A DNA stretch of 32,000 nucleotides from Geotalea daltonii FRC-32 (GTDB lineage Bacteria > Desulfobacterota > Desulfuromonadia > Geobacterales > Geobacteraceae): assembly GCF_000022265.1 (NCBI RefSeq), contig NC_011979.1, positions 3,750,001-3,782,000 on the forward strand, read 5' to 3'. The first letter of the stretch is position 1. Each line of letters begins with the position of its first letter. Below are positions 14,771 through 27,418 of the stretch, piece by piece. The notes beneath the pieces were generated by a model that saw only the letters and a list, made by a program, of their open reading frames with translations, made no database searches and had not been told where the DNA came from. The position numbers and the translations under genes were made by a program.

Positions 14771-14960
14771 TGTAGGGGCGATCCTTGTGATCGCCCGGTT
14801 TTCAATAGTCCCGTGGTCCGTAGGGGCGAACCTTGTGATCGCCCGGTTTTTCAATGGCAATCGGATCAGGGCGAACACAAGGTTCGGCAACACCCAAAGG
14901 CGGGCGAACACAAGGTTCGGCAACACCCAAAGGCGGGCGAACACAAGGTTCGCCCCTACC
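14771..14960. repeat. Cluster of REP-type hairpins, including a 33-bp unit in about 2.7 tandem copies
   Basis: Hairpins: GGGCGATC-cttgt-GATCGCCC (14776-14796), GGGCGA..TCGCCC (14824-14844) and GGGCGAAC-acaag-GTTCGCCC (14935-14955). The tandem unit gggcgaacacaaggttcggcaacacccaaaggc occurs at 14869-14901 and 14902-14934, plus a partial third copy. The motif GTAGGGGCG..CGCCCC is the classic REP partner of RAYT transposases. Confidence 0.85.
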
Positions 14961-15796: not shown

Positions 15797-17698
15797 AGGT
15801 TCAATCCTCGTCCGCCTTTGCAGACGGGCGCTACAATTACAAGGAGGAGCGGAGAGATGGAACCTATTGTTTCAATCCTCGCCCGCCTTTACAGACGGGC
15901 GCTACGTGGTAGTTTCAAAGACATGGTGTTACCCCCTGAGTTTCAATCCTCGCCCGCCTTTACAGACGGGCGCTACGAGAGAGCCAGCCGGGGGCGTGAC
16001 AGCAGGCACAGTGTTTCAATCCTCGCCCGCCTTTACAGACGGGCGCTACGTCCCCGATTTTGCTGACACTGACAAGTAGATAGTTTCAATCCTCGCCCGC
16101 CTTTACAGACGGGCGCTACTAAGGGTATTATTACCAAGGCTCTATCCGATGTAGTTTCAATCCTCGCCCGCCTTTACAGACGGGCGCTACACAAGGCAGC
16201 CGATGATCCGAACTCCCAGCACACCAGTTTCAATCCTCGCCCGCCTTTACAGACGGGCGCTACTGCAGAAGAGTTCCTCGTCGGCGTGTTCTTTGTAGTT
16301 TCAATCCTCGCCCGCCTTTACAGACGGGCGCTACCCTTGTTATCGCCGCCGTAGTTGGCGTTGGTGATGTTTCAATCCTCGCCCGCCTTTACAGACGGGC
16401 GCTACAGTTCCCTATGCTCCATGCTGTGCTGGTGGATCTGTTTCAATCCTCGCCCGCCTTTACAGACGGGCGCTACAATGGACATCAACCGCACTTAAAG
16501 CATCGACGGTGTTTCAATCCTCGCCCGCCTTTACAGACGGGCGCTACATGATGTGCCTCCTGCCCGTCGCCGGGTGTGATGTGTTTCAATCCTCGCCCGC
16601 CTTTACAGACGGGCGCTACGCTGACGCCGAATTTGCCGTCGCGGTAGGTTTTGGTTTCAATCCTCGCCCGCCTTTACAGACGGGCGCTACTTCGGTGATT
16701 GCACCGTTGAAGGTATATCCTGCCGGTTTCAATCCTCGCCCGCCTTTACAGACGGGCGCTACATGAGGGCGGCCCGGCTGGCGCTGTAGGATGCGGTGTT
16801 TCAATCCTCGCCCGCCTTTACAGACGGGCGCTACCTTTGATAGCAAAGGGATATCCGAACAAATAGTGGTTTCAATCCTCGCCCGCCTTTACAGACGGGC
16901 GCTACGAACAAAAAGGGATCATCCAAAAGGGGCATGGCTTGTTTCAATCCTCGCCCGCCTTTACAGACGGGCGCTACGCGCTGGAGGTCTGCGCGCTGGC
17001 CGCCTTCCTTACAGTTTCAATCCTCGCCCGCCTTTACAGACGGGCGCTACGCCCACGCCAAGGCCTTCACCGTCGCCAAGGTGATGTTTCAATCCTCGCC
17101 CGCCTTTACAGACGGGCGCTACTTCGGTGATTGCACCGTTGAAGGTATATCCTGCCGGTTTCAATCCTCGCCCGCCTTTACAGACGGGCGCTACATGGTC
17201 CGCCATTTGCTGGGAGGTGACGAAATTGTTTCAATCCTCGCCCGCCTTTACAGACGGGCGCTACATGATAAATCACCTCCGTAGATAACCACTCGCCGGT
17301 TTCAATCCTCGCCCGCCTTTACAGACGGGCGCTACCTACCGTACCGTGGGCCGGCAGAAATCACCTGACCCAGGGGTTTCAATCCTCGCACGCCTTTACA
17401 GACGGGCGCTACGTAGTTTTCCCGCCGCTTGTAGATATCGACCTCTTGTTTCAATCCTCGCCCGCCTTTACAGACGGGCGCTACCAGGCTCAGAAGCTCA
17501 TTGGCACTGCCGGCATTGAGTTTCAATCCTCGCCCGCCTTTACAGACGGGCGCTACCGGCGGTGCCGGACGTACCGCTCCTAATACTGACCTGTTTCAAT
17601 CCTCGCCCGCCTTTACAGACGGGCGCTACCCCCAAGCCCACGCATGCCCGGTACGTTGCAACGTTTCAATCCTCGCCCGCCTTTACAGACGGGCGCTA
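15797..17698 (-). CRISPR. CRISPR array with 27 repeats (37 nt) and 26 spacers (33-36 nt, plus one of 40 nt)
   Basis: The + strand repeat is GTTTCAATCCTCGCCCGCCTTTACAGACGGGCGCTAC. On the minus strand it reads GTAGCGCCCGTCTGTAAAGGCGGGCGAGGATTGAAAC, ending in the ATTGAAAC handle. Transcription is therefore minus-strand, from the cas2-proximal leader. The terminal repeat at 15797-15833 is degenerate (3 mismatches), consistent with the trailer end. Repeat 23 (17375-17411) has a C-to-A change at 17389. Repeat starts: 15797, 15868, 15939, 16012, 16082, 16153, 16226, 16297, 16368, 16439, 16510, 16582, 16653, 16725, 16797, 16868, 16940, 17013, 17085, 17157, 17227, 17298, 17375, 17447, 17519, 17592, 17662. 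Confidence 0.97.
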
Positions 17699-17877
17699 CC
17701 GCCCCCTCTAAAAGGGGTCAGTTTCCAGCATGTTACCAGCCTGTTTTCGCGAAACAGGCGTTTGCAGCCTAAAAACAACTTTCTGCCAAAAATTGCAGCG
17801 GCAAAAACACTGTAATTCATGACAGTTACAATTCCGCGAATCCCCCCGGTTTTCCGCATGTGCAACAGGTTCGCGTT
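17699..17877 (-). promoter_or_regulatory. CRISPR leader (between the cas2 stop and the first repeat)
   Basis: A 179-bp non-coding, comparatively AT-rich stretch next to the newest-end repeat. It contains the small hairpin CCCCT-ctaaa-AGGGG abutting the first repeat. The promoter itself was not pinpointed. Confidence 0.6.
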
Positions 17878-18171
17878 TCATACGATCAGCGGATCATCAT
17901 CAAAAAATACCTGCTCAAAAATCCCAAACGTCTCCACGTTCTTTTCACGTGGCTCGGTCAGCCGATACAACCTGAGGTTATCCTCCTTCTCTTCGATCTC
18001 CCGGAGCAGCTTGCGGCGCAGGTCTTCCAGCTTCATCTCATTCACCTGACATTCAAATACCGACTTCTGCACCCGCTGACCGTAGTTCTTGCACACCTGG
18101 GCCACTCGGCGCAGCCTTTTCCTTCCCTGCCTCGTTTCCGTGTTCACATCATAACAGACGACAATCCACAT
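17878..18171 (-). CDS. cas2: CRISPR-associated endoribonuclease Cas2
   Basis: 97 aa. [41 protein letters not shown] is the canonical Cas2 N-terminus. Confidence 0.95.
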
Positions 18172-18188
18172 ATATCCCCCGCTACAGC

Positions 18189-19223
18189 TCAGGTATATAA
18201 AACCGGCGTATATTCCTCCAGATCGCCGCGCAAGTGGCGGGCCAACAACCGGGCCTGCACGTGGGGTACGATGCCGAATGCAACCTTTTCCCCAAGGATC
18301 GGATGAAAGAACTCTTCCTGTTTCCGCTTCTGATAGGCGACCACAACTGTCTTGCGACCGTCTTCATTGAGATATACCGCCCCGCCGGGACGTGGTTCGA
18401 AATCCTTCTCGGTGATCTGTTTGCGGTTGATGAGGGTCAGTGCCAGCCTATCGGCAATGACTGCTCGGAATTCTTCCATGAGATCCAATCCCAGGGACGG
18501 CCTGCCGGGACGCAAGGCATGCAGGAACCCCATTTGACTGTCCAGCCCCACGCTCTCCACCGCGCTGATGCAATCGTTCAGTACCAGGGTATATAGAAAG
18601 GAAAGCAGGGCATTCATGGGATCAAGGGGGGGCCGCCGGTTGCGGTTATCCATGGCAAAGGCCGCCCGATCCCCATCCTTGACCATCTGATCGAACACGG
18701 CAAAATATGCCGCTGCCGACTCCCCTTCCAGGCCGCGCACCTGATCTATTTCGCAAATGCTTTTGAGCCTGAAAAGCGTATCCGCATGGATTTCCGAGGC
18801 CTTGCGCAAGGCCGTTTCCTCTTCGGGGCTATCGCTCTCACGGGCGCCGCGCATGAGCACCTGGCGGGCATTCTTCACCTTGCCTGCAACCATATTCCGG
18901 GCAATCGCTGCCGCTTTTCCCTTATCCCGCACCGCCTCGTACTGGGCCTGGCGCAGCAGGACGTTGCCGCTGGTCTTGCCCACCATGCGGCATTTGTACC
19001 GCCCGCTCCGGCTGAGAATCACCACCGGCCTGCCGTCATCGGCACATTTGCCGAGGAAAAAGGGACTGATCATCACATTGCCGAAGGTAACGACAGAACC
19101 AAGATGGTGAAGGGGCACCTGCATCTGCAGCTTGCCATTCACCTCCACCCGCACGGTTTCATGATCCAGGCTCAGGTATGAACCTTGAGTCATGACATAT
19201 AAGGTATTCAGAAGCTGTTTCAT
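18189..19223 (-). CDS. cas1: CRISPR-associated integrase Cas1 (I-C type)
   Basis: 344 aa. [22 protein letters not shown]... plus the conserved C-terminal acidic/His region ([22 protein letters not shown]). 4-nt overlap with cas4. Confidence 0.95.
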
Positions 19224-19843
19224 GGTTTCACCTCGAATAATTCCCGGTAAGCCAGACGTTCACGATCTTTTTCCGCCACTACTGACGGCAGACACGATTC
19301 CTTCAATGAACAGCCCTCACAGCGTTTGTCGTTGACCGGCGGCGGCACAATGCCCTTTTCCAGCATCTCCCCAACGGCGGCAACCACTCGCACAACCTGC
19401 TCCCGCATGGCAGCAGTCATGCCGACTTCCTTCCGCTCCCGAGAACTGTGCCAGTAGAGCGCCCCTGTTTCTACCGGCACACCGAACATCTCCTCCAGAC
19501 AGATCGCCTGGGCACACAGCTGAAGAGTCTCAGGGTCGCCCCGGCGCCGTCGTCCGGATTTATATTCCACCGGATAAGGAACATTGTCATGAAACTCAAC
19601 CAGATCCGCCTTGCCTACCAAGTTGAGTCTTCTGCACCAGATTGGGAGCGCCCGCTCATATCGCACCCCCGCCAATTCATGGGCCGAGACTTCGTCCACT
19701 CGCTCGTGCACGTCACGCCCGCGCATGGTGTAAATGTTCTCGCTCCACACCTGTTCCACATGAATTAGGGCACACTGACGCGGGCAGTAGGCGTAGTGCT
19801 CCAGGGCCGAGATCATGACTGGATCGACATTGTCAGGTGTCAT
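19220..19843 (-). CDS. cas4: CRISPR-associated exonuclease Cas4 (RecB-like nuclease with a 4-Cys cluster)
   Basis: 207 aa. N-terminal Cys (YCPRQC), the C-terminal CEGCSLKESC cluster, and the nuclease core DLVEF...YKSG. Confidence 0.9.
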   Translation of the reverse strand: MTPDNVDPVMISALEHYAYCPRQCALIHVEQVWSENIYTMRGRDVHERVDEVSAHELAGVRYERALPIWCRRLNLVGKADLVEFHDNVPYPVEYKSGRRRRGDPETLQLCAQAICLEEMFGVPVETGALYWHSSRERKEVGMTAAMREQVVRVVAAVGEMLEKGIVPPPVNDKRCEGCSLKESCLPSVVAEKDRERLAYRELFEVKP

Positions 19844-20886
19844 TAATTCTCCCCCGGCTTTTGCCGTGCTTCCATCTGCTTCAGTGCCTCCAGAAAATCC
19901 CTGTCAACCGGGCGGGGCAATGCATCGATCATGATACGATATCGTTCATATTCCAGTTCCGCCTTTTCTTTTGCAGCTTCAGCTGTAATCGTACCGGCAT
20001 GATCCAGTAGGTCATGCTCCGAGAGCTTCAGGAAATCATCCAGCTTGCCGATCCAGTTATGCATGGTCATCGGCTTGCGACGTAGCGCTTGGAGTTCGGC
20101 GAAGTCGAGATACGCTGCCACAATACGGTTCAGCGCCTGAAGTTCCTCTCCCGTAAGGTAGTTCTTGGCGATGGCAACATCCTCTTTCCGCACTATGCCG
20201 CCGGGGCGGGTCGAAACAAGCCCCATGTGCGGCTTGTCTGCATCTGGCCGCCGGTAAATCACCTCTGCCGCCGTCTGACCATGACAGGCCCAATGCATCT
20301 TGTTCTGCACAGCGGCAAAGAATTGCTGTGACAGATCAATATTCGGCGAATAGTCAACGCTGGTCGCATAAATATCGAGTACCTTCTGATAAAATCGTCG
20401 CTCGGAAGAGCGGATGTCACGAATCCGCTCCAACTGTTCATCGAAATAATCCTTCTGCCCTTTTCCCGGCGGATTTTTCAGGCGTTCGTCATCCATGGTG
20501 AAACCTTTGAGCAGGTATTCACCCAAGAGTGCCGTTGCCCACTGGCGGAACTGGGTGCCACGATGACTGCGGACCCTGTAACCGACGGCAAGGATGGCCT
20601 CAAGCCGGTAATGCCGCAAGCTACGGGAAACATCCCGGCCCCCCTCCTGACGAACTTGTAAGTAATCCTTACAGGTTGCCCCTTCGTCCAATTCACCCTC
20701 GGCAAAGATGGCTTTAAGGTGGAGCGTCACGTTCTGGGGTGTCGTCTGAAACAGCTCTCCAATCTGCGCCTGGGTCAGCCATATGGTTTCGTCGGCAAAG
20801 CGGCACTGAATACGAGTGCGCCCATCTTCGGTCTGGTAGAGAAGGAATTCGCCGGAGGAGGGGATGAGGTCTTTCTGTTTTTTCAT
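19843..20886 (-). CDS. RhuM-family protein (Virulence_RhuM-like; putative DNA-binding N-terminus) embedded in the cas operon
   Basis: 347 aa. FLLYQTEDGRTRIQCRFADETIWLTQAQIGELFQTTPQNVTLHLKAIFAEGEL...RHYRLEAILAVGYRVRSHRGTQFRQWAT..L.EYLLKGFTMDDERLKN...RFYQKVLDIYATS.DY matches my memory of RhuM-family proteins closely. The stop TAA overlaps the cas4 ATG (TAATG, 19841-19845). Confidence 0.8.
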   Translation of the reverse strand: MKKQKDLIPSSGEFLLYQTEDGRTRIQCRFADETIWLTQAQIGELFQTTPQNVTLHLKAIFAEGELDEGATCKDYLQVRQEGGRDVSRSLRHYRLEAILAVGYRVRSHRGTQFRQWATALLGEYLLKGFTMDDERLKNPPGKGQKDYFDEQLERIRDIRSSERRFYQKVLDIYATSVDYSPNIDLSQQFFAAVQNKMHWACHGQTAAEVIYRRPDADKPHMGLVSTRPGGIVRKEDVAIAKNYLTGEELQALNRIVAAYLDFAELQALRRKPMTMHNWIGKLDDFLKLSEHDLLDHAGTITAEAAKEKAELEYERYRIMIDALPRPVDRDFLEALKQMEARQKPGEN

Positions 20887-20902
20887 GTGAGTTGCCTTTG
20901 TA

Positions 20903-20926
20903 GGGGCGGCCCCCTGTGGCCGCCCC
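20903..20926. repeat. REP hairpin in the cas7-rhuM intergenic gap
   Basis: tGTAGGGGCGGCC-ccctgt-GGCCGCCCCgg has a 9-bp GC stem and a 6-nt loop. It belongs to the same GTAGGGGCG...CGCCCCGG(T/A)TTT family as the hairpins at 14771-14960. It lies 17 nt upstream of the rhuM-like ATG. Confidence 0.8.
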
Positions 20927-20961
20927 GGATTTTGGGCGTTGCGTGGACGCTCCCCGCAATC

Positions 20962-21828
20962 TCAGACCCCGTCAATTATTTCAGGTACCGGCCCATTCAG
21001 TTCATTGAACGAAATCAATAAATTCAGATCGTCAGTGTCCATGACGTTCAAGCTTCTGTGCACCTTGGCGGAAGAGCATTGGCCACTTGCGCAGTTGTGC
21101 TGCCACCATACCACTTTCAAAACCTCCATACTTCCTTCGGGACGGGCGGATGAGGCGTCATTCTCGAACAAGCGAGGGAGGACAGCCTTGATAGCCGCTG
21201 CGTCAGCATCACTGAATCCGGTCTTGACGGCCAGTTGCGGGTTCATACTGCCGTAAAAGGTATAAATGCCACGATCCACGCGGTGTTTCATCCCCATGGT
21301 GTCAGAACCACGCTTGGTGCCGTCACCTTCGCCGCTAACACTCTTGGTGATCTGGGTGCTGGTCAGGCTGACCGGGGAAATACTGAATGCCGACTGAACG
21401 CTGACAGGACCGCGAATGCCGATAGATACGCCTTTATCATCGCCGGGCTCTTCTCCCTCTTTGGCCTTGCCTTTCTTGCCACCGGCTGCCTTGAAAGCAA
21501 AGAGCTGCCCAAATGCACGGACATCAAACCAGGTTTCACAGGCTTTTTTCGCTTTCTCATCTGCTGCCTTTATCCCATCAAGCACTTCATCGGCGCGCGA
21601 TTTGAGGCTTGGATGCTTGTCGTTTTTGCTGTCATCGGACTGAACAAAAATTCGTTGTCCCGCCTCCATCAAACGGTTGCGAATCTTGCGCTTGATGCAG
21701 ACATCGGAAACCTCACCGTTTCCTTCGTAGATGGTGCGGGGACGGTTGCCGTTGAGGGGGTCACCGTTCGGGTTGGCGTTGGTCACTTTGAAAACTACTG
21801 CGAAATCGATTTTGTTTGACAGGCTCAT
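20962..21828 (-). CDS. cas7: Type I-C Cascade backbone subunit Cas7c (Csd2)
   Basis: 288 aa. IDFAVVFKVTNANPNGDPLNGNRPR is the Csd2/Cas7c N-terminal signature. Confidence 0.92.
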   Translation of the reverse strand: MSLSNKIDFAVVFKVTNANPNGDPLNGNRPRTIYEGNGEVSDVCIKRKIRNRLMEAGQRIFVQSDDSKNDKHPSLKSRADEVLDGIKAADEKAKKACETWFDVRAFGQLFAFKAAGGKKGKAKEGEEPGDDKGVSIGIRGPVSVQSAFSISPVSLTSTQITKSVSGEGDGTKRGSDTMGMKHRVDRGIYTFYGSMNPQLAVKTGFSDADAAAIKAVLPRLFENDASSARPEGSMEVLKVVWWQHNCASGQCSSAKVHRSLNVMDTDDLNLLISFNELNGPVPEIIDGV

Positions 21829-21857
21829 ATTCGTTCTCCTTTTATGTGATTTGTTGG

Positions 21858-22262
21858 TTAGTCGTCAGAATTATCGAGGTCATCATTGGCCCCGGTTGCC
21901 TCGCTCGCGACAGCTGGTTTCAGTGCTGCTCGCTGGCAGTGGTAACCCAGCAGGAATTCGCCGCTCAACCTGTCGTCTCTGGTGAATTCCTCGGGCGGGT
22001 CAAACTTGACATGAACGGCGTCCAACAACGATTTAACCTTGTGCGCCTTGTCACCCAGCCTGACTTTATAAGGGAGCAGCGAAAGTTCGAGAGTCCGCCA
22101 TGTGCTATAAGGTCGATCAGCAAAGCGCTGCATCATCCTTTCCGCGTTGGTCGGCCTGCTTTCACCTGCCGTCCGAATCGCCCAGTGTTCCAAGTTCTCC
22201 GCTAGTGCCAGCAACCTGCCATACAGATAATCCCGAGTCGTTCGATTCTCATCAAGCGCCAT
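21858..22262 (-). CDS. cas11: Probable internally translated small subunit Cas11c (134 aa, in frame within the cas8c 3' end)
   Basis: The in-frame ATG at 22262..22260 is preceded by GAAAAGGAGGGGTACACT (an AAGGAGG Shine-Dalgarno, 8-nt spacer) inside the coding sequence. Type I-C systems are known to make Cas11 this way. Confidence 0.55.
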   Translation of the reverse strand: MALDENRTTRDYLYGRLLALAENLEHWAIRTAGESRPTNAERMMQRFADRPYSTWRTLELSLLPYKVRLGDKAHKVKSLLDAVHVKFDPPEEFTRDDRLSGEFLLGYHCQRAALKPAVASEATGANDDLDNSDD

Positions 22263-23759
22263 AGTGTACCCCTCCTTTTCATGTCGTTTTCGATAAAGCG
22301 CACAAGCTATTCCAAGGGCCTTTTCCCATTCCCAGTACTCGATTCCGTTTTTATTGCTTGCCCGCCTGACGCACGATTCCACGAGGTCGCGAGGGATGGG
22401 CGCGCCATCCACGATGCATGGGAGCAATCGTTCTATGGTTGCTTTTCGTAACTTGTCGTCAATGCGTCGGCCATATGCCACTTCGGCAATGTCACGCGGC
22501 GCAGGTGCGCCGACGAAAATCCTGTCTTTACCGAAATATTGCAGCCAGCAACAGCTGGTATGCCACGACTCGATCCGCTCAAGGAACTCGGAGCCTAGCA
22601 GTTCACGGTAGTAGCTGATGGCCATACGACCAGGTGTGGCGGAGTCAAGTCCGAGGACAACGACCTCGTCAGTTGGTTTCAGCTTTGCCCCATAGCCAGC
22701 CAACTTTTTCGACAATGCCACGCCAACTTCCTGAGCGGTGTAGCCGGTCTTTGGCGACGCCGGTGCATCCTTGCCTCCGAACAAGAAAGCAAAGGTGTCC
22801 GCCTGAGGATCTGGGACATCCGCCCCGGACACGGCCCAGGCAACCACAGCTTGATCTCCGTCACGTCTGCCTTGGCGCTCAATCAGCCACCGCAAAGCAC
22901 TATGAGCTTTTTGCGTTACCTCAATCCCTATTCCACAGGCTTCCGCATCAGTTGTGAATCGCCCCAGATAGGTAAATCCTTCCGAATCGTTTGACGAAAT
23001 CAGTTTTGCTCCGTCACCGGGATAGCGAATGTTTTTCGGATGATTAGAAGCAAGGCCAGCTGTTCCACCCGTAACCATACAAAGATCGCGGTTGGTCTGC
23101 AGGCCCGCATAGTAACTGCGCCAAGAGTCCCAAAGCGATGCATCCTTCCACAGTTCGGACTGAGTATCTCCGGAGATCTCAACAGAAAACCTGACAAAAG
23201 CTTCAAATTGGCCCTTTTTGTTGGCTTGCTTGATAATCTTGAAAACAGGCGGAGCATCTGCTTCATCTATCCACTCTGCAGCCAGTTGCCCGCTGTTGTC
23301 GGCATAAAGCACTTTCTTTTCAATCAAGTCCTTTATGAGTCGCCCCTGTTTCAAGTAAGCAAACACCGACTGCAATTTCCGATGTTGTGAGCTATCAACC
23401 CATGCTTTTAGCCCTTTCAGATACGGCTCAAAACCTGATTCGTTTTTCTTTTTATTGGGATTCCCCCCATACTCCAAATAATCACCGGCTACATATTGCA
23501 ACGTGTCACAGAGCGCATGGGGAGCAATTTTAGCTCCTGAACGCCCGGCTGATGCCTCCGTTGCCGGAATAATGGTCTGTGCGTCATCTTTCATCACAAC
23601 AGATGCGTCCAGCAAATTACCTTGTCCATCTAGCACGACATGGAGTTGTGCATTTTGCGTACTGTGGAAAAGAGGCAGTAAAGGAACTGCATCCTTTGGA
23701 TTGGCAATGTTCCCGAGGTTATTCTCATACGTCTGATGCAGCTTCTCAATCCAGCTCAT
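21858..23759 (-). CDS. cas8c: Type I-C large subunit Cas8c (Csd1)
   Basis: 633 aa, positioned between cas5 and cas7. MSWIEKLHQTYENN... is a typical Csd1 N-terminus. It overlaps the cas5 end by 14 nt. Confidence 0.88.
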   Translation of the reverse strand: MSWIEKLHQTYENNLGNIANPKDAVPLLPLFHSTQNAQLHVVLDGQGNLLDASVVMKDDAQTIIPATEASAGRSGAKIAPHALCDTLQYVAGDYLEYGGNPNKKKNESGFEPYLKGLKAWVDSSQHRKLQSVFAYLKQGRLIKDLIEKKVLYADNSGQLAAEWIDEADAPPVFKIIKQANKKGQFEAFVRFSVEISGDTQSELWKDASLWDSWRSYYAGLQTNRDLCMVTGGTAGLASNHPKNIRYPGDGAKLISSNDSEGFTYLGRFTTDAEACGIGIEVTQKAHSALRWLIERQGRRDGDQAVVAWAVSGADVPDPQADTFAFLFGGKDAPASPKTGYTAQEVGVALSKKLAGYGAKLKPTDEVVVLGLDSATPGRMAISYYRELLGSEFLERIESWHTSCCWLQYFGKDRIFVGAPAPRDIAEVAYGRRIDDKLRKATIERLLPCIVDGAPIPRDLVESCVRRASNKNGIEYWEWEKALGIACALYRKRHEKEGYTMALDENRTTRDYLYGRLLALAENLEHWAIRTAGESRPTNAERMMQRFADRPYSTWRTLELSLLPYKVRLGDKAHKVKSLLDAVHVKFDPPEEFTRDDRLSGEFLLGYHCQRAALKPAVASEATGANDDLDNSDD

Positions 23760-24456
23760 CTAACAGTCCCTCCTCTCGCAGCCCGTTGGAGCTGGGTGGA
23801 TTAGGGATCATCTCCCGTACAAACTTGCGCACCGTACAATCTTCCGGCGTAGTAAACTCCACCACACCATCCTTCATGACCGGCCGCCAGAACCGGCTAT
23901 GCAGTTCTTTCGTGCCGGTTTCATCCGGATAATCGAATCCATGAAACATCAACCCGTATTCCAGATTGCCGTACCCGTCATACTCCCCCTTCTCTTCACC
24001 GAATGTGCACGGTTCAACATATCCCTGACATTCCCTCGTTCCAAGGAATACATCCTGACGTCCACCCTTTGCAACCATCCGCTTGGCGACATGCCAATGT
24101 TTGTCGGGATCGCGGTCATCGGCCAGGTCTTCACGGTGCACGTTCCACTCGAAATGAGCCTGTACCTGGTACTCCACGTCAGCCAGATAGGTGTAAATAG
24201 CCAGCGTATTACCCTCTTTATGATAGTTAAGCGGTTTCATGCTCTTTGACTGAGTACGGATGCGCTTCATTACCCGCACCTTGTCGATCACCCAGACAAA
24301 TGTCGGTTTCCAGTAAATGGACTTGGCGACCCCCTTGAGCGCCTCGTACGTCGGAATATGATACGAACATTTTTCCCCGCCTATTTTGGTCAGCGGGTCG
24401 GTGAACAGGGCAAAGCGTCCCGTCACCTTGAAGTCAATACGGCTCTTCATTGTCAC
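23746..24456 (-). CDS. cas5: Type I-C Cas5d (crRNA endoribonuclease / Cascade subunit)
   Basis: 236 aa. FKVTGRFALFTDPLTKIGGEKCSYHIPTYEALKGVAKSIYWKP is the Cas5d signature. Confidence 0.92.
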   Translation of the reverse strand: MTMKSRIDFKVTGRFALFTDPLTKIGGEKCSYHIPTYEALKGVAKSIYWKPTFVWVIDKVRVMKRIRTQSKSMKPLNYHKEGNTLAIYTYLADVEYQVQAHFEWNVHREDLADDRDPDKHWHVAKRMVAKGGRQDVFLGTRECQGYVEPCTFGEEKGEYDGYGNLEYGLMFHGFDYPDETGTKELHSRFWRPVMKDGVVEFTTPEDCTVRKFVREMIPNPPSSNGLREEGLLDELD

Positions 24457-26902
24457 CTCCTGAAACGATGAGTAACTTCATGTCTGCAACCGGTTCCATG
24501 CTTACGCCGAACTCCTCACTGTAATGGCGCTCATCAAGGCAGTAGATGCCGCTGCCGCTCCAAACCTCATACAGCCGCCGTTGTTCCTTCAACTTTTCCA
24601 GCTCGTAGGGAAACAGGTTAACCGAATATCTCTGCGCCTCCTTGAGCAGACGCCCTTTGTCATCGAAACCGGAGGCGGAAAGGTCGGCGATGATCCGTTC
24701 CCCGGCGCCGTATGGCACTATCACCCCCTGAGAGGGGGAGTCGATAGCCTTGAAGGCCCTGGCAGCGCTCATGAACGATTGGCGGAGATAAAGCGAAGGA
24801 GCCTGTTTGTGCTCATTCAGATAAATTTGGACGGAGTCTTCATTTTTTGAAAGCAGATTCAAAAGAGTATCTCGTTGTCTGGGCATATTCCTAATGTCCC
24901 TGTCAGATACTGGAAAATCCATTTCTCCGGCACGTTGAAAGAAGTAATAATCGTAGTAACGCTCCAAGGATTTTGGACTCTGCAAGTCGCGATTGAAGAA
25001 GTCTGGGTTGTCCTTGAACTCGCGCAGCACCCGCTTTGTCACGTCCTGCGCGTTCCTGATTTCCGGCAGCCTGTCCAGCCCCTCGTTTGCCGGATTGACG
25101 ATCAACACCCTGCCAATCTTTCGCAAACCATTGCGGTTGCACCGCCCTGCCGCTTGAGCAATAGAGTCCAGACCAGCCAGATAGCGGATCACCGTGCCGA
25201 AGTCCACATCAACACCGGCTTCTATCAGTTGGGTACTGATGCAGATAACCGGTAGCGGATTTTCCGGGTTGAGGCAGGCTTTAACCTTGTCGAGGATAGC
25301 CGTGCGATGAGCGGGACACATACTCGTACTCAGGTGATAGACATGGTCCAGCTTGTCGTGCAGGCGCTGATAGAGCGCCTTTGCCTGGGTCTTCTTGTTG
25401 ACGATGATGAGCACGCTGCCGGATGACTCAAGCTCTTGGAGCGCGGTTTCCGCCACCGCCTCTTCCGTCCACCCGGTGTCTTTGCAGTGGTCTTCAATCC
25501 TGGCACGATGCAGGTCCCGGAACAGTTCGCCCACGTTCGGCATCATCTCCGCATCGGACGCAAGCCGCGCCGCCCCTTTCTTCGGATCAACCCTGTCCAG
25601 AATCGGCTGCGTCGCAGTGCAAAACACGACTGTCGAACCGCATTGCCCAACCATAAAATTGATGGCGTTGTTGAACAGGTGAATCGTACGGATCGGAATG
25701 GTCTGTATTTCGTCGAAGATGATAACGGCATTAGCAAGCTGGTGGAGCCGCCGTACACCTCGGGTTCCGGCGGCAAAGAGCGTTTCAAGAAATTGTACGG
25801 CAGTGGTATAGATGATGGGTACATTCCAGTTCTCAGCCAGTAGTTTGCTCTCGTTGGTGTCCTGCTCCGGGGTAAGATTTGAGTGATGCTCCAGCACGAT
25901 TTGCCTGCCGTTTTTTTCAAGTGCGGCAAACACGGACCGGGCAACACGGGCATTCTGGTCAATTATGGAGGTGTAAGGGACAACGTAAATGATGCGGTCC
26001 ATCCCATGCTTGGCGGCATGATGCAGGGCAAAACGGAGGCTTGCCAGTGTTTTGCCGCCACCGGTGGGGACGGTAAGTTGAATTAACCCTTTCCCCCTGG
26101 CAGCAGATTGCAGGCATGATTCGGAAATATCAGCCCTGATCTCATCTATCCGATTTCTGACCGTAAAACCTGCAAGATGGATTTCGAGTAAGTCTATCAG
26201 TGGTTGCCAATCGGGTTTATTTGCAGGTTTACGCTCCGCTGAATTCAGACGGTCTGCATCGATCAAAGCACTGAAGAGAAAGCGCGTCAGGAAGCCGAGC
26301 ATGAACTGACCGATTTCCAGAGAAGGCATGTCTTTACCAAGCCGTTCAAGGAGACGACGCATTTCATTTTCTATCTGAGTTGAAGTCAGTAAAGCCTGAA
26401 CACGGTTTCGCACCTGTTCTTCCAGATTCCGATCCACTTCAGCGAAATGAGTCTTATCTCCAGGCTTTTGCATACGCTTTGTGAACACATCCGCACCATC
26501 AGACGCAAGACAGTCGATCAATCCGGAATGGTGCGATGCAATGCAAAGCGCCATGATGTCCGTGGCTATCTGCCAAAACCGGGAATCCTTCTTTCCCTGT
26601 TCACGCAGATACTGAGCCCCGGCTGTGGAATGGTCAATTTTGCCTTTCATCCGACCGGCATCGACATACTCCTCCTCGTCCGGCTCAATCTTCCCTTCTG
26701 AGGATTGGAGATAGGACTGGAAGGCCGCTGAGTACTTGCCAAGATCATGAAGCAGCCCCATTAGCTCACCTATAGTCGGAAGCCCTATTTTGCCGGTATA
26801 GCTCGCGGCGAGCGTGGAAACACCTTCAAGGTGATCTTGCACACTTTGCGGCATTCCATCGGAATCACGATACCTGGCGACATATTGACTGTCATGCCTC
26901 AA
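24434..26902 (-). CDS. cas3: Cas3 helicase-nuclease (N-terminal HD domain plus SF2 helicase)
   Basis: 822 aa. HD motifs LHDLGKYSAAFQ, ASHHSGL and DADR. Helicase motifs VPTGGGKT (I), FDEIQ (II) and TATQP (III). RBS AGGAGG upstream. Confidence 0.95.
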   Translation of the reverse strand: MRHDSQYVARYRDSDGMPQSVQDHLEGVSTLAASYTGKIGLPTIGELMGLLHDLGKYSAAFQSYLQSSEGKIEPDEEEYVDAGRMKGKIDHSTAGAQYLREQGKKDSRFWQIATDIMALCIASHHSGLIDCLASDGADVFTKRMQKPGDKTHFAEVDRNLEEQVRNRVQALLTSTQIENEMRRLLERLGKDMPSLEIGQFMLGFLTRFLFSALIDADRLNSAERKPANKPDWQPLIDLLEIHLAGFTVRNRIDEIRADISESCLQSAARGKGLIQLTVPTGGGKTLASLRFALHHAAKHGMDRIIYVVPYTSIIDQNARVARSVFAALEKNGRQIVLEHHSNLTPEQDTNESKLLAENWNVPIIYTTAVQFLETLFAAGTRGVRRLHQLANAVIIFDEIQTIPIRTIHLFNNAINFMVGQCGSTVVFCTATQPILDRVDPKKGAARLASDAEMMPNVGELFRDLHRARIEDHCKDTGWTEEAVAETALQELESSGSVLIIVNKKTQAKALYQRLHDKLDHVYHLSTSMCPAHRTAILDKVKACLNPENPLPVICISTQLIEAGVDVDFGTVIRYLAGLDSIAQAAGRCNRNGLRKIGRVLIVNPANEGLDRLPEIRNAQDVTKRVLREFKDNPDFFNRDLQSPKSLERYYDYYFFQRAGEMDFPVSDRDIRNMPRQRDTLLNLLSKNEDSVQIYLNEHKQAPSLYLRQSFMSAARAFKAIDSPSQGVIVPYGAGERIIADLSASGFDDKGRLLKEAQRYSVNLFPYELEKLKEQRRLYEVWSGSGIYCLDERHYSEEFGVSMEPVADMKLLIVSGGDNEEPY

Positions 26903-26935: not shown

Positions 26936-26972
26936 CTGTAAAAAATTTTTACAGTGTAAAAATTTTTTACAG
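26936..26972. promoter_or_regulatory. 37-bp AT-only nested palindrome (candidate operator) 34-70 bp upstream of the cas3 start
   Basis: CTGTAAAAAATTTTTACA-G-TGTAAAAATTTTTTACAG has 18-bp arms that are exact reverse complements, and each arm is itself a near-palindrome TGTAAAAA/TTTTTACA. Confidence 0.55.
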
Positions 26973-27418
26973 TTCTTTCAGCCAGTTACACAACCCCAGC
27001 CTTTTTATAGTCCCATCATCCGCCCCCTTACAAGCCCAAAATGATCCAATCCACATTATTTATTTTTTATTTTTCAGACGTAGTGTAACCTTGCATTGCG
27101 ACAGAATACGTCTTTTTGATAAATATTTTTCTAACATCCCGGTTTCCAACTACGGTGCGTTATGCTAAATTGCGTCCATCATAATGGTGAACGGGGGGAA
27201 CTTGTCGCGGCACCTCTTTAATCTGTTTACGAGAAAATCAACGCATGGAAAAAATAGCGGACGTCATCATTTTAGCCGCTGCTACCAATAAGCCGGTAAA
27301 ATCTTCCACACCTTCTACTTTTTCCAGTCATATTCACGCCCTTCTTTCGCCTTGACCTTCTCACCACCTATTGTTAGATTCGTTTGCATAAATTTGTTCT
27401 GATGCTTTACCCGCAAAA

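Follow-up and report, generated by a model that had tools for sequence, protein, structure and literature searches.

A conserved RhuM-family gene at the cas7-cas4 junction of a type I-C CRISPR-Cas operon in Geotalea daltonii FRC-32: a candidate embedded anti-phage gene

We examined a stretch of 32,000 nucleotides (nt) of the Geotalea daltonii FRC-32 genome (contig NC_011979.1, positions 3,750,001 to 3,782,000; hereafter the window), where cas7 and cas4 of a type I-C clustered regularly interspaced short palindromic repeats (CRISPR)-Cas operon are separated by a gene of the RhuM family, here called rhuM. In our best explanation, to which we give a probability of roughly 60%, rhuM is an autonomous, single-protein anti-phage gene of the RhuM/PDC-S05 type that became embedded in the operon where its interference genes give way to its adaptation genes, a boundary that tolerates insertions. 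RhuM itself probably takes no part in CRISPR interference or adaptation, and on present evidence the gene does not reveal a new CRISPR component. The rival readings, each discussed below, are disfavoured because the presence of rhuM is polymorphic, its insertion site is shared with many other genes, it has relatives outside cas loci, and a toxin partner or enzyme signature is missing. Loci of the surveys are designated by numbers with the prefix L and proteins by numbers with the prefix P.

The locus is complete and belongs to type I-C according to NCBIfam typing, with the gene order cas3-5-8-7-[rhuM]-4-1-2 and all genes on the minus strand. The gene rhuM (19843..20886, minus strand) starts with ATG and encodes 347 amino acids (aa), and its product is 100% identical to the 'RhuM family protein' of Geotalea daltonii FRC-32. 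A preliminary description, made from the letters of the window, had proposed a 347-aa minus-strand open reading frame (ORF) of the RhuM family, placed between the interference genes (cas3/5/8c/7) and the adaptation genes (cas4/1/2) of an I-C operon. The NCBIfam typing agrees with that position, and the family was recovered in a profile search: aa 70-318 match the Pfam domain Virulence_RhuM (PF13310) with E=4.7e-111 and 370.5 bits, against a cut-off of 33.7, covering positions 1-246 of the 252 of the profile. The PADLOC family PDC-S05 (PDC, phage defence candidate) gave a full-length match (aa 6-342 to positions 6-339 of 346; E=9.5e-142), and this alignment takes in an N-terminal domain that lies outside the Pfam model. 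NCBIfam has no model for the RhuM protein, and the GC content of rhuM showed no compositional anomaly relative to the cas genes.

We then looked at where RhuM occurs. The family, which is also COG3943, is large, with 28,821 clusters at 50% identity (E<=1e-3). In a survey with the RhuM protein as query and one genome per species, from which the 80 nearest loci were taken, 9 of the 80 homologues were embedded in cas loci and the other 71 were found outside them. Many of the non-cas copies sit in type I restriction-modification (R-M) operons, between hsdS and hsdR. In particular, HsdS was the largest same-strand ORF within 1.5 kb upstream in 15 out of 67 loci, and an HsdR-like protein was the largest one within 1.5 kb downstream in about 16 out of 59. 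Other neighbours of non-cas copies were MmeI, GmrSD, AbiEii-like ATPases, Schlafen/AlbA_2 and HipA. In 16 non-cas loci rhuM overlaps the ORF chosen as its downstream neighbour by 4 nt, so tight operonic packing is a habit of the family and not special to cas4. One copy from Geobacteraceae, 85% identical to that of the window (P0012, locus L006), stands alone among housekeeping genes without any partner. Homologues are rare in phages (51 of 50,697 records) and in plasmids (129 of 72,556), and several of those adjoin hsdM. RhuM is thus not cas-specific, either as a family or as a subclade. We also noticed three RhuM fusions (P0169, P0171 and P0270) joined to fragments of glycogen phosphorylase, phosphotransacetylase and HsdM; these are possibly chimeras of gene calling or assembly, or rhuM insertions that disrupt other genes.

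The junction that holds rhuM is itself a frequent site of extra DNA. In a reciprocal survey, metagenomes were scanned with the Cas4 of the window and 80 related I-C loci were recovered (L090-L169); a junction was counted as occupied when it held at least 300 nt of extra DNA, after correction for unaligned ends. The cas7-cas4 junction was occupied in 30 out of 66 loci, versus 0 of 37 for cas3-cas5, 0 of 41 for cas5-cas8c, 3 of 53 for cas8c-cas7, 8 of 70 for cas4-cas1 and 1 of 53 for cas1-cas2. The inserts between cas7 and cas4 comprised pairs of HEPN and nucleotidyltransferase (MNT) genes, 23S_rRNA_IVP four-helix proteins, Bro-N, Fic/DOC, YhcG/DUF1016 nucleases, ParE, Uma2 and RhuM. The boundary between cas7 and cas4 is therefore a general insertion hot spot for small unrelated defence and toxin genes in related I-C loci. 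RhuM was present in only a few loci of this survey, namely L090 (the same contig as L004), L092 (which resembles L088), L149, L157, L158 and L168; in L149 the match is a RhuM-like stretch (40% identity), and in L168 a copy of 56% identity directly precedes cas4. This general property of the junction accounts for where rhuM lies, since close relatives are either empty there or carry a Bro-N gene.

Bro-N genes recur in these loci beyond that site. We found them between cas4 and cas1 in four loci (L004:9672-10256, L010:11611-12522, L026:12313-13176 and L028:11663-12487) and at the cas7-cas4 junction in another (L091:4102-5001), while Bro-N-RhuM fusion proteins exist elsewhere (P0139 and P0191). 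This recurrence, together with the fusions, suggests a possible connection of the Bro-N and RhuM families. The RhuM of the window and a co-resident Bro-N protein show no pairwise similarity in BLASTP (E=2.3). A gene of the 23S_rRNA_IVP family (bAvd-like, four-helix) was also seen between cas1 and cas2 (L028:13671-14129), the same family that occupies the cas7-cas4 junction elsewhere.

The preliminary description had left two readings of rhuM, an accessory factor for spacer acquisition or abortive signalling and a hitch-hiking defence gene that uses the cas operon. Our data favour the second and not the first, because close RhuM relatives occur in R-M operons and on their own, because the cas7-cas4 junction of closely related I-C loci holds unrelated passengers or is empty, and because a PDC-S05 gene protects Escherichia coli alone. 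In that published test, one PDC-S05 gene with a Virulence_RhuM domain, present alone in E. coli B, lowered the plating of T7 and T5 by about 1000-fold and that of T4 by about 10-fold (PMC12881386). The PDC candidates of PADLOC, PDC-S05 included, were derived from genes embedded in bacteriophage exclusion (BREX), defence island system associated with restriction-modification (DISARM) and type I R-M systems (bioRxiv 10.1101/2024.01.29.577857).

A hot spot shared with classic toxin-antitoxin (TA) genes, such as HEPN/MNT, ParE and Fic, could also be expected if RhuM were a selfish toxin or addiction module that stabilises itself and its host locus, or a last-resort suicide device for when CRISPR fails, and no direct antiviral effector. 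RhuM was indeed proposed as a toxin domain in R-M-linked multilevel defence, where it takes the position of DOC and is often fused to it (Anantharaman et al., PMC3710099), and the first gene after the arrays gave weak PemK or MazE antitoxin matches both in the window's own locus (L001) and in L004. We nevertheless consider a toxin role quite unlikely. There is no antitoxin-like partner beside rhuM, which is flanked by cas7 (75-nt spacer) and cas4 (1-nt overlap) without any intervening ORF, and the gene also stands alone in an ordinary chromosomal context. Its product bears no Fic/DOC or other enzyme-toxin signature, in Pfam to E<=10 or in its predicted fold, which is of the DNA-binding-regulator type.

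The embedded arrangement is conserved. In the species survey rhuM lies between cas7 and cas4 in nine loci (L010, L024, L025, L026, L028, L029, L030, L069 and L088), whose hosts are assigned to Geobacter, Desulfuromonadales or 'Deltaproteobacteria', and a tenth related locus (L004/L005) came from a metagenome, which gives 11 cas-embedded loci with that of the window. All ten other loci are type I-C according to NCBIfam. Their effectors fall into at least three clades that are mutually 22-35% identical, while their Cas4, Cas1 and Cas2 are about 68-80% identical to those of the window; rhuM therefore stays with the adaptation half of the locus while the effector modules shuffle. Module shuffling is extensive in these I-C loci in general (L010, L024, L025, L028 and L088 compared with 17878-26902 of the window), and the effectors are still of type I-C. 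The gene is intact in all cas-embedded loci and evolves under purifying selection, with a ratio of nonsynonymous to synonymous substitution rates (dN/dS) of 0.06-0.15 at dS 0.7-1.4, comparable to cas4 and cas1 (about 0.13). Since it is intact everywhere and under purifying selection, rhuM is not a decaying recent insertion. This bears out the earlier view that the gene is no recent passive insertion: its position has been kept in 11 loci over a dS of about 0.7-1.4 with a dN/dS of 0.06-0.15.

On the other hand, rhuM is absent from L091, L093 and L095, although the Cas1 and Cas4 of these loci belong to the same clade as those of the rhuM-bearing ones. The cas7-cas4 junction is empty in L093 and L095, and L091 has its Bro-N gene there instead. 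The presence of rhuM is thus polymorphic within the Cas1/Cas4 clade.

The RhuM protein is a mosaic. We found at least three types of N-terminal domain (aa 1-120), which are mutually about 50% identical: type A in the window, L004 and L010; type B in L025, L028, L029, L030 and L069; and type C in L024, L026 and L088. Closely similar N-domains of each type occur in genomes of other phyla, and the N-domain of the window is 79-88% identical to that of Verrucomicrobiota and Nitrosovibrio copies (L011, L012 and L079). Over the remainder (aa 121-347) the cas-embedded copies share 64-100% identity, in most cases 80-100% and least in the C-terminal tail; this part contains a near-invariant core (aa 121-180; 20347-20526 in the window) that is 88-100% identical in every RhuM compared. 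In the C-terminal two-thirds the cas-embedded copies and the stand-alone copy of L006 form one clade with 63.5% bootstrap, while the N-domain gives no such clade. The loci L010 and L025 illustrate the exchange: their Cas1 proteins are nearly identical and their effectors of one type, yet the N-domain types differ, and the dS between their rhuM genes is 1.46 in the N-domain versus 0.56 in the remainder. A neighbour-joining tree of the whole protein had pointed to two independent captures into cas loci, which we dropped, as region-wise identities and bootstraps show the mosaic. The simplest history suggested by these comparisons would be one old capture in the lineage, followed by recombinational exchange of the N-domain.

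This pattern, combined with the predicted fold, allows us to propose how an embedded anti-phage RhuM may work. The variable N-domain would recognise a phage-derived DNA or DNA-protein target, and its types may represent at least three ancient alleles exchanged by recombination. The conserved helical domain, with its invariant polar residues, would dimerise or act on nucleic acid, and this action may block phage replication or trigger abortive infection. The exchangeable N-domain would thus be the specificity determinant and the invariant core the effector. Embedding in the cas operon would give rhuM co-regulation and co-transfer with its host system.

For the fold we used an AlphaFold2 model built on a diverse alignment, which reached a pLDDT (predicted local distance difference test) of 89.2 and a pTM (predicted template modelling score) of 0.73; an alignment of 58 close homologues (75-90% identity) gave a pLDDT of only 51. 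The model has an N-terminal beta-hairpin with a winged-helix domain, Bro-N/KilA-N-like and variable (approximately aa 10-105; 20572..20859, minus strand), and a C-terminal all-helical domain that holds the invariant polar residues (approximately aa 108-342; 19861..20565, minus strand). Residues R159, S161, E162, D178, Y179, Q194, N195, E208, K241, N242, Y243 and E264 count among the invariant ones. In the Foldseek search against PDB, structures of DdrC took the top two places and were the sole matches at a probability of 0.99 (8u0g_B, E=0.01; 7qvb_A, E=0.03). In BFVD, a set of predicted viral structures, 26 entries matched at E<=1e-3, down to 1e-7, mostly Bro-N, KilA-N, 'repressor domain' and Ant-like antirepressor proteins, and these alignments frequently span most of the protein length. 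At the sequence level, Pfam gave a weak HTH_Crp_2 match in the N-terminal domain and no Bro-N or KilA-N match on the window protein, and a PDB sequence search with RhuM returned no match. The fold of this confident model is best described as a Bro-N/KilA-N-like winged-helix N-domain followed by a helical, possibly DdrC-like domain, and not as Fic. A relationship with Fic/DOC was rejected: there was no Pfam match on either half of the protein even at E<=10, and none among the Foldseek PDB matches. The structure comparison with Fic/DOC-associated domains raised in the preliminary description thus found no support, in sequence or in predicted fold.

We also examined the sequences that surround the gene. 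The rhuM stop codon TAA (19845-19843) and the cas4 ATG (19843-19841) have one base in common, so that the TAATG overlap reported earlier at 19841..19845 (minus strand) is present, and a Shine-Dalgarno-like run GGGGGAG lies within the 3' end of rhuM. The rhuM-cas4 junction is tight in all related loci, though its form varies: TAATG, TAGtATG in L004, or an 11-nt overlap (L025, L028, L029, L030, L069 and L088). A consensus scan detected no sigma-70-like promoter or intrinsic terminator between cas7, rhuM and cas4, and the counts of the scan were not above those of shuffled sequence. It is probable that rhuM shares a transcript with the cas genes and that its translation is coupled to that of cas4; the earlier placement of rhuM in the transcript of the adaptation module is plausible.

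The spacer between cas7 and rhuM is 75 nt long (20887-20961), with a predicted fold energy of -34 kcal/mol, and contains a GC-rich hairpin, GGGGCGGCC-ACAGG-GGCCGCCCC, that resembles repetitive extragenic palindromic (REP) elements (20903..20926, minus strand). A hairpin is found upstream of rhuM in 10 out of the 11 cas-embedded loci, with a varying stem sequence, and none was seen upstream in L029. Placement after such a hairpin may lower rhuM expression. We considered the hairpin as an element specific to the rhuM cassette and rejected this, for it belongs to a generic palindrome family present at many intergenic sites of these loci. The family, GGGCGnnCACAnGGnnCGCCCCTAC, occurs in both orientations, between operon genes and upstream of cas3; it has many intergenic sites in L004, L010, L024, L025 and L030, and in the window it is found at 14777-14954 and 20903-20926. 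The former region holds three palindrome copies (Tandem Repeats Finder period of 33 at 14869-14952).

Closer to the gene lies a conserved 5' leader of 16 nt, TACAAAGGCAACTCAC, directly before ATGAAAAAA (20887..20902, minus strand). The form (C)TACAAAGGCAAC(T)GAC or a close variant, followed by ATGAAAAAA, is present in 9 of the 10 other cas-embedded loci; it is more divergent in L028, and L029 is without both hairpin and leader. The leader is kept whatever the effector clade or the type of RhuM N-domain, and the relatives L093 and L095, which have no rhuM, do not show it ahead of cas4. By this comparison of loci, the 16-nt leader appears to travel with rhuM.

A conserved hairpin and leader just upstream of the gene, an N-domain with a winged helix whose fold resembles phage repressor-domain, Ant and KilA-N proteins, and the weak Crp-type helix-turn-helix match would all suit a transcription regulator, or an antirepressor-like controller, that acts on the cas operon or on its adaptation half upon infection. 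We find this very unlikely for a family that is so widespread (28,821 clusters) and whose large helical domain is conserved and rich in invariant polar residues, and the hairpin belongs to a palindrome family that is generic and genome-wide. An operon-specific regulator would also be unexpected because the core hardly varies between phyla or between host operon types, be they R-M, cas or stand-alone.

Several points weigh against an autonomous anti-phage gene that is simply embedded in the operon. We know of no RhuM with a characterised biochemical activity. Its resemblance to solved structures is modest (PDB E=0.01-0.03, with template modelling scores of 0.29-0.43). Synteny is stable over at least 11 loci and three effector clades, and the always-tight junction with cas4 fits a link with adaptation as well. 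More distant RhuM lineages also adjoin adaptation genes, upstream of cas4 in L149 and L168 and between cas4 and cas1 in L157 and L158. RhuM-domain ORFs were reported between cas1 and cas9 in type II-C loci of Bacteroides fragilis (PMC5704556). Finally, the sole functional test used one unrelated representative, over-expressed from a vector induced with isopropyl beta-D-thiogalactopyranoside (IPTG) (PMC12881386).

These points lead to the possibility that RhuM is a true adaptation accessory, a DNA-binding protein akin to DdrC or Bro-N that captures or shields DNA ends and the degradation fragments left by Cas3 and hands these on to Cas4-Cas1-Cas2, or, in a variant, that modulates host repair at breaks and so couples interference to primed adaptation. 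The gene lies exactly at the boundary of interference and adaptation, overlaps cas4 and has been kept beside cas4-cas1-cas2 over three I-C effector clades; the further lineages next to cas4 or cas1 (L149, L157, L158, L168 and the II-C loci of B. fragilis) point the same way, as do the RhuM copies of R-M operons that adjoin the DNA-cleaving subunit HsdR. First among the PDB fold matches is DdrC, a protein with a winged helix and a four-helix bundle that binds damaged DNA, compacts it and protects it (PMC9303277). We still judge an adaptation role unlikely, given that closely related adaptation modules have no rhuM (L093 and L095) or have Bro-N in its place (L091), that the same junction hosts many unrelated passenger genes, that non-cas loci account for 71 of the 80 nearest homologues, and that one family member works alone in E. 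coli. Nor is there a cas-specific sequence signature, as the N-domains are common to non-cas copies (79-88%) and the C-domain clade includes L006.

A broader formulation treats RhuM as a DdrC- or Bro-N-like sensor or binder of DNA ends or nicks that would cooperate with HsdR in type I R-M and with Cas3 in type I-C. Situated at the boundary, it would act on degradation products, for example by preventing their repair or by steering them to Cas4-Cas1-Cas2. Such a role would explain the recurrent placement beside hsdR and beside cas4 or cas1 in several independent lineages, but we regard it as quite improbable. In a weaker variant, the cas7-cas4 junction with its REP-like hairpins could be a true cassette-exchange site for defence genes.

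Compared with known systems, the rhuM of the window shares with the PDC-S05 family the same two-domain architecture and a same-strand, tightly packed position inside a multi-gene defence operon; it differs in that the host operon is a type I-C cas operon and not type I R-M, BREX or DISARM. The preliminary description knew of no described cas-embedded RhuM, and in this it was mistaken: in addition to the II-C case of B. fragilis (PMC5704556), there is a report on type I cas loci that contain Fic genes, some of these genes with a Virulence_RhuM domain (PMC3936711). In both of those cases, as here, a RhuM coding sequence lies inside a cas cluster and adjoins adaptation genes. The gene of the window differs from them in its CRISPR subtype (I-C), in its junction (cas7-cas4) and in being a single intact RhuM without a Fic domain; and conservation, purifying selection and mosaicism are shown here across a lineage.

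Genes found by guilt-by-embedding and TA genes of cas loci are similar in being same-orientation nested genes that probably share the regulation and transfer of their host; 96.7% of embedded genes are oriented as the host system (Payne et al. 2024, bioRxiv 10.1101/2024.01.29.577857). CRISPR-Cas is unmentioned in that preprint; our counts put figures on the bias of I-C loci towards the cas7-cas4 junction (30/66, versus about 0 inside the interference module). Like the predicted RhuM, DdrC of Deinococcus radiodurans (7qvb and 8u0g) combines a winged helix at its N-terminus with a helical bundle behind it, but RhuM is about 130 aa longer, the identity is 10-12% and there is no sequence-level relationship; the likeness may be confined to the fold. 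Phage Bro-N, KilA-N and Ant proteins resemble RhuM in the predicted structure of the N-domain, although RhuM lacks a Pfam Bro-N match.

If rhuM is indeed an autonomous anti-phage gene, the locus would be a clean and conserved case of one immune gene nested in the operon of another immune system, guilt-by-embedding would extend from R-M, BREX and DISARM to CRISPR-Cas type I-C, and the cas7-cas4 junction would be a place to seek new defence genes. For the RhuM family, the analysis gives a first fold-level description, evidence for exchangeable allelic types of the N-domain and a short list of invariant residues.

The other genes of the locus, all on the minus strand, were assigned as follows. 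On the interference side, cas3 (24434..26902) encodes HD and helicase parts (Cas3_HD, DEAD and Cas3-like_C_2; TIGR01587 and TIGR01596) and is followed by cas5c (23746..24456; TIGR01876, 254.2 bits against a cut-off of 85), cas8c or csd1 (21858..23759; TIGR01863, 396.5 bits against 218.65) and cas7c or csd2 (20962..21828; TIGR02589, 307.9 bits against 182). On the adaptation side, cas4 (19220..19843) was recognised by Pfam Cas_Cas4 and TIGR00372, the type I-C cas1 (18189..19223) by TIGR03640 cas1_DVULG (504.9 bits against 385), and cas2 (17878..18171) by Pfam CRISPR_Cas2 and TIGR01573.

The CRISPR array (15798..17699, minus strand) has 27 repeats of 37 nt and matches CRISPR-DR9 of Rfam on the minus strand; its orientation is that of the cas genes, and the repeat ends in ATTGAAAC. 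The repeat farthest from cas2 (15798-15834) is degenerate, with 3 mismatches, and since it is this far-end repeat that is degenerate, an array leader adjoining cas2 (17700-17877) is consistent. One internal repeat (17376-17412) has a single mismatch.

Directly upstream of the cas3 ribosome-binding site (cas3 start at 26902) we noticed two tandem AT-rich palindromes, CTGTAAAAA(A)TTTTTACAG, at 26937-26973. The intergenic region there has a low GC content (0.41) and the palindromes have an operator-like appearance; none was found in any related locus. The cas locus of the window was also recovered in metagenome assemblies. Finally, the remaining genes of the window are ordinary chromosomal ones and encode cytochromes, histidine kinases and a sigma-54 activator.

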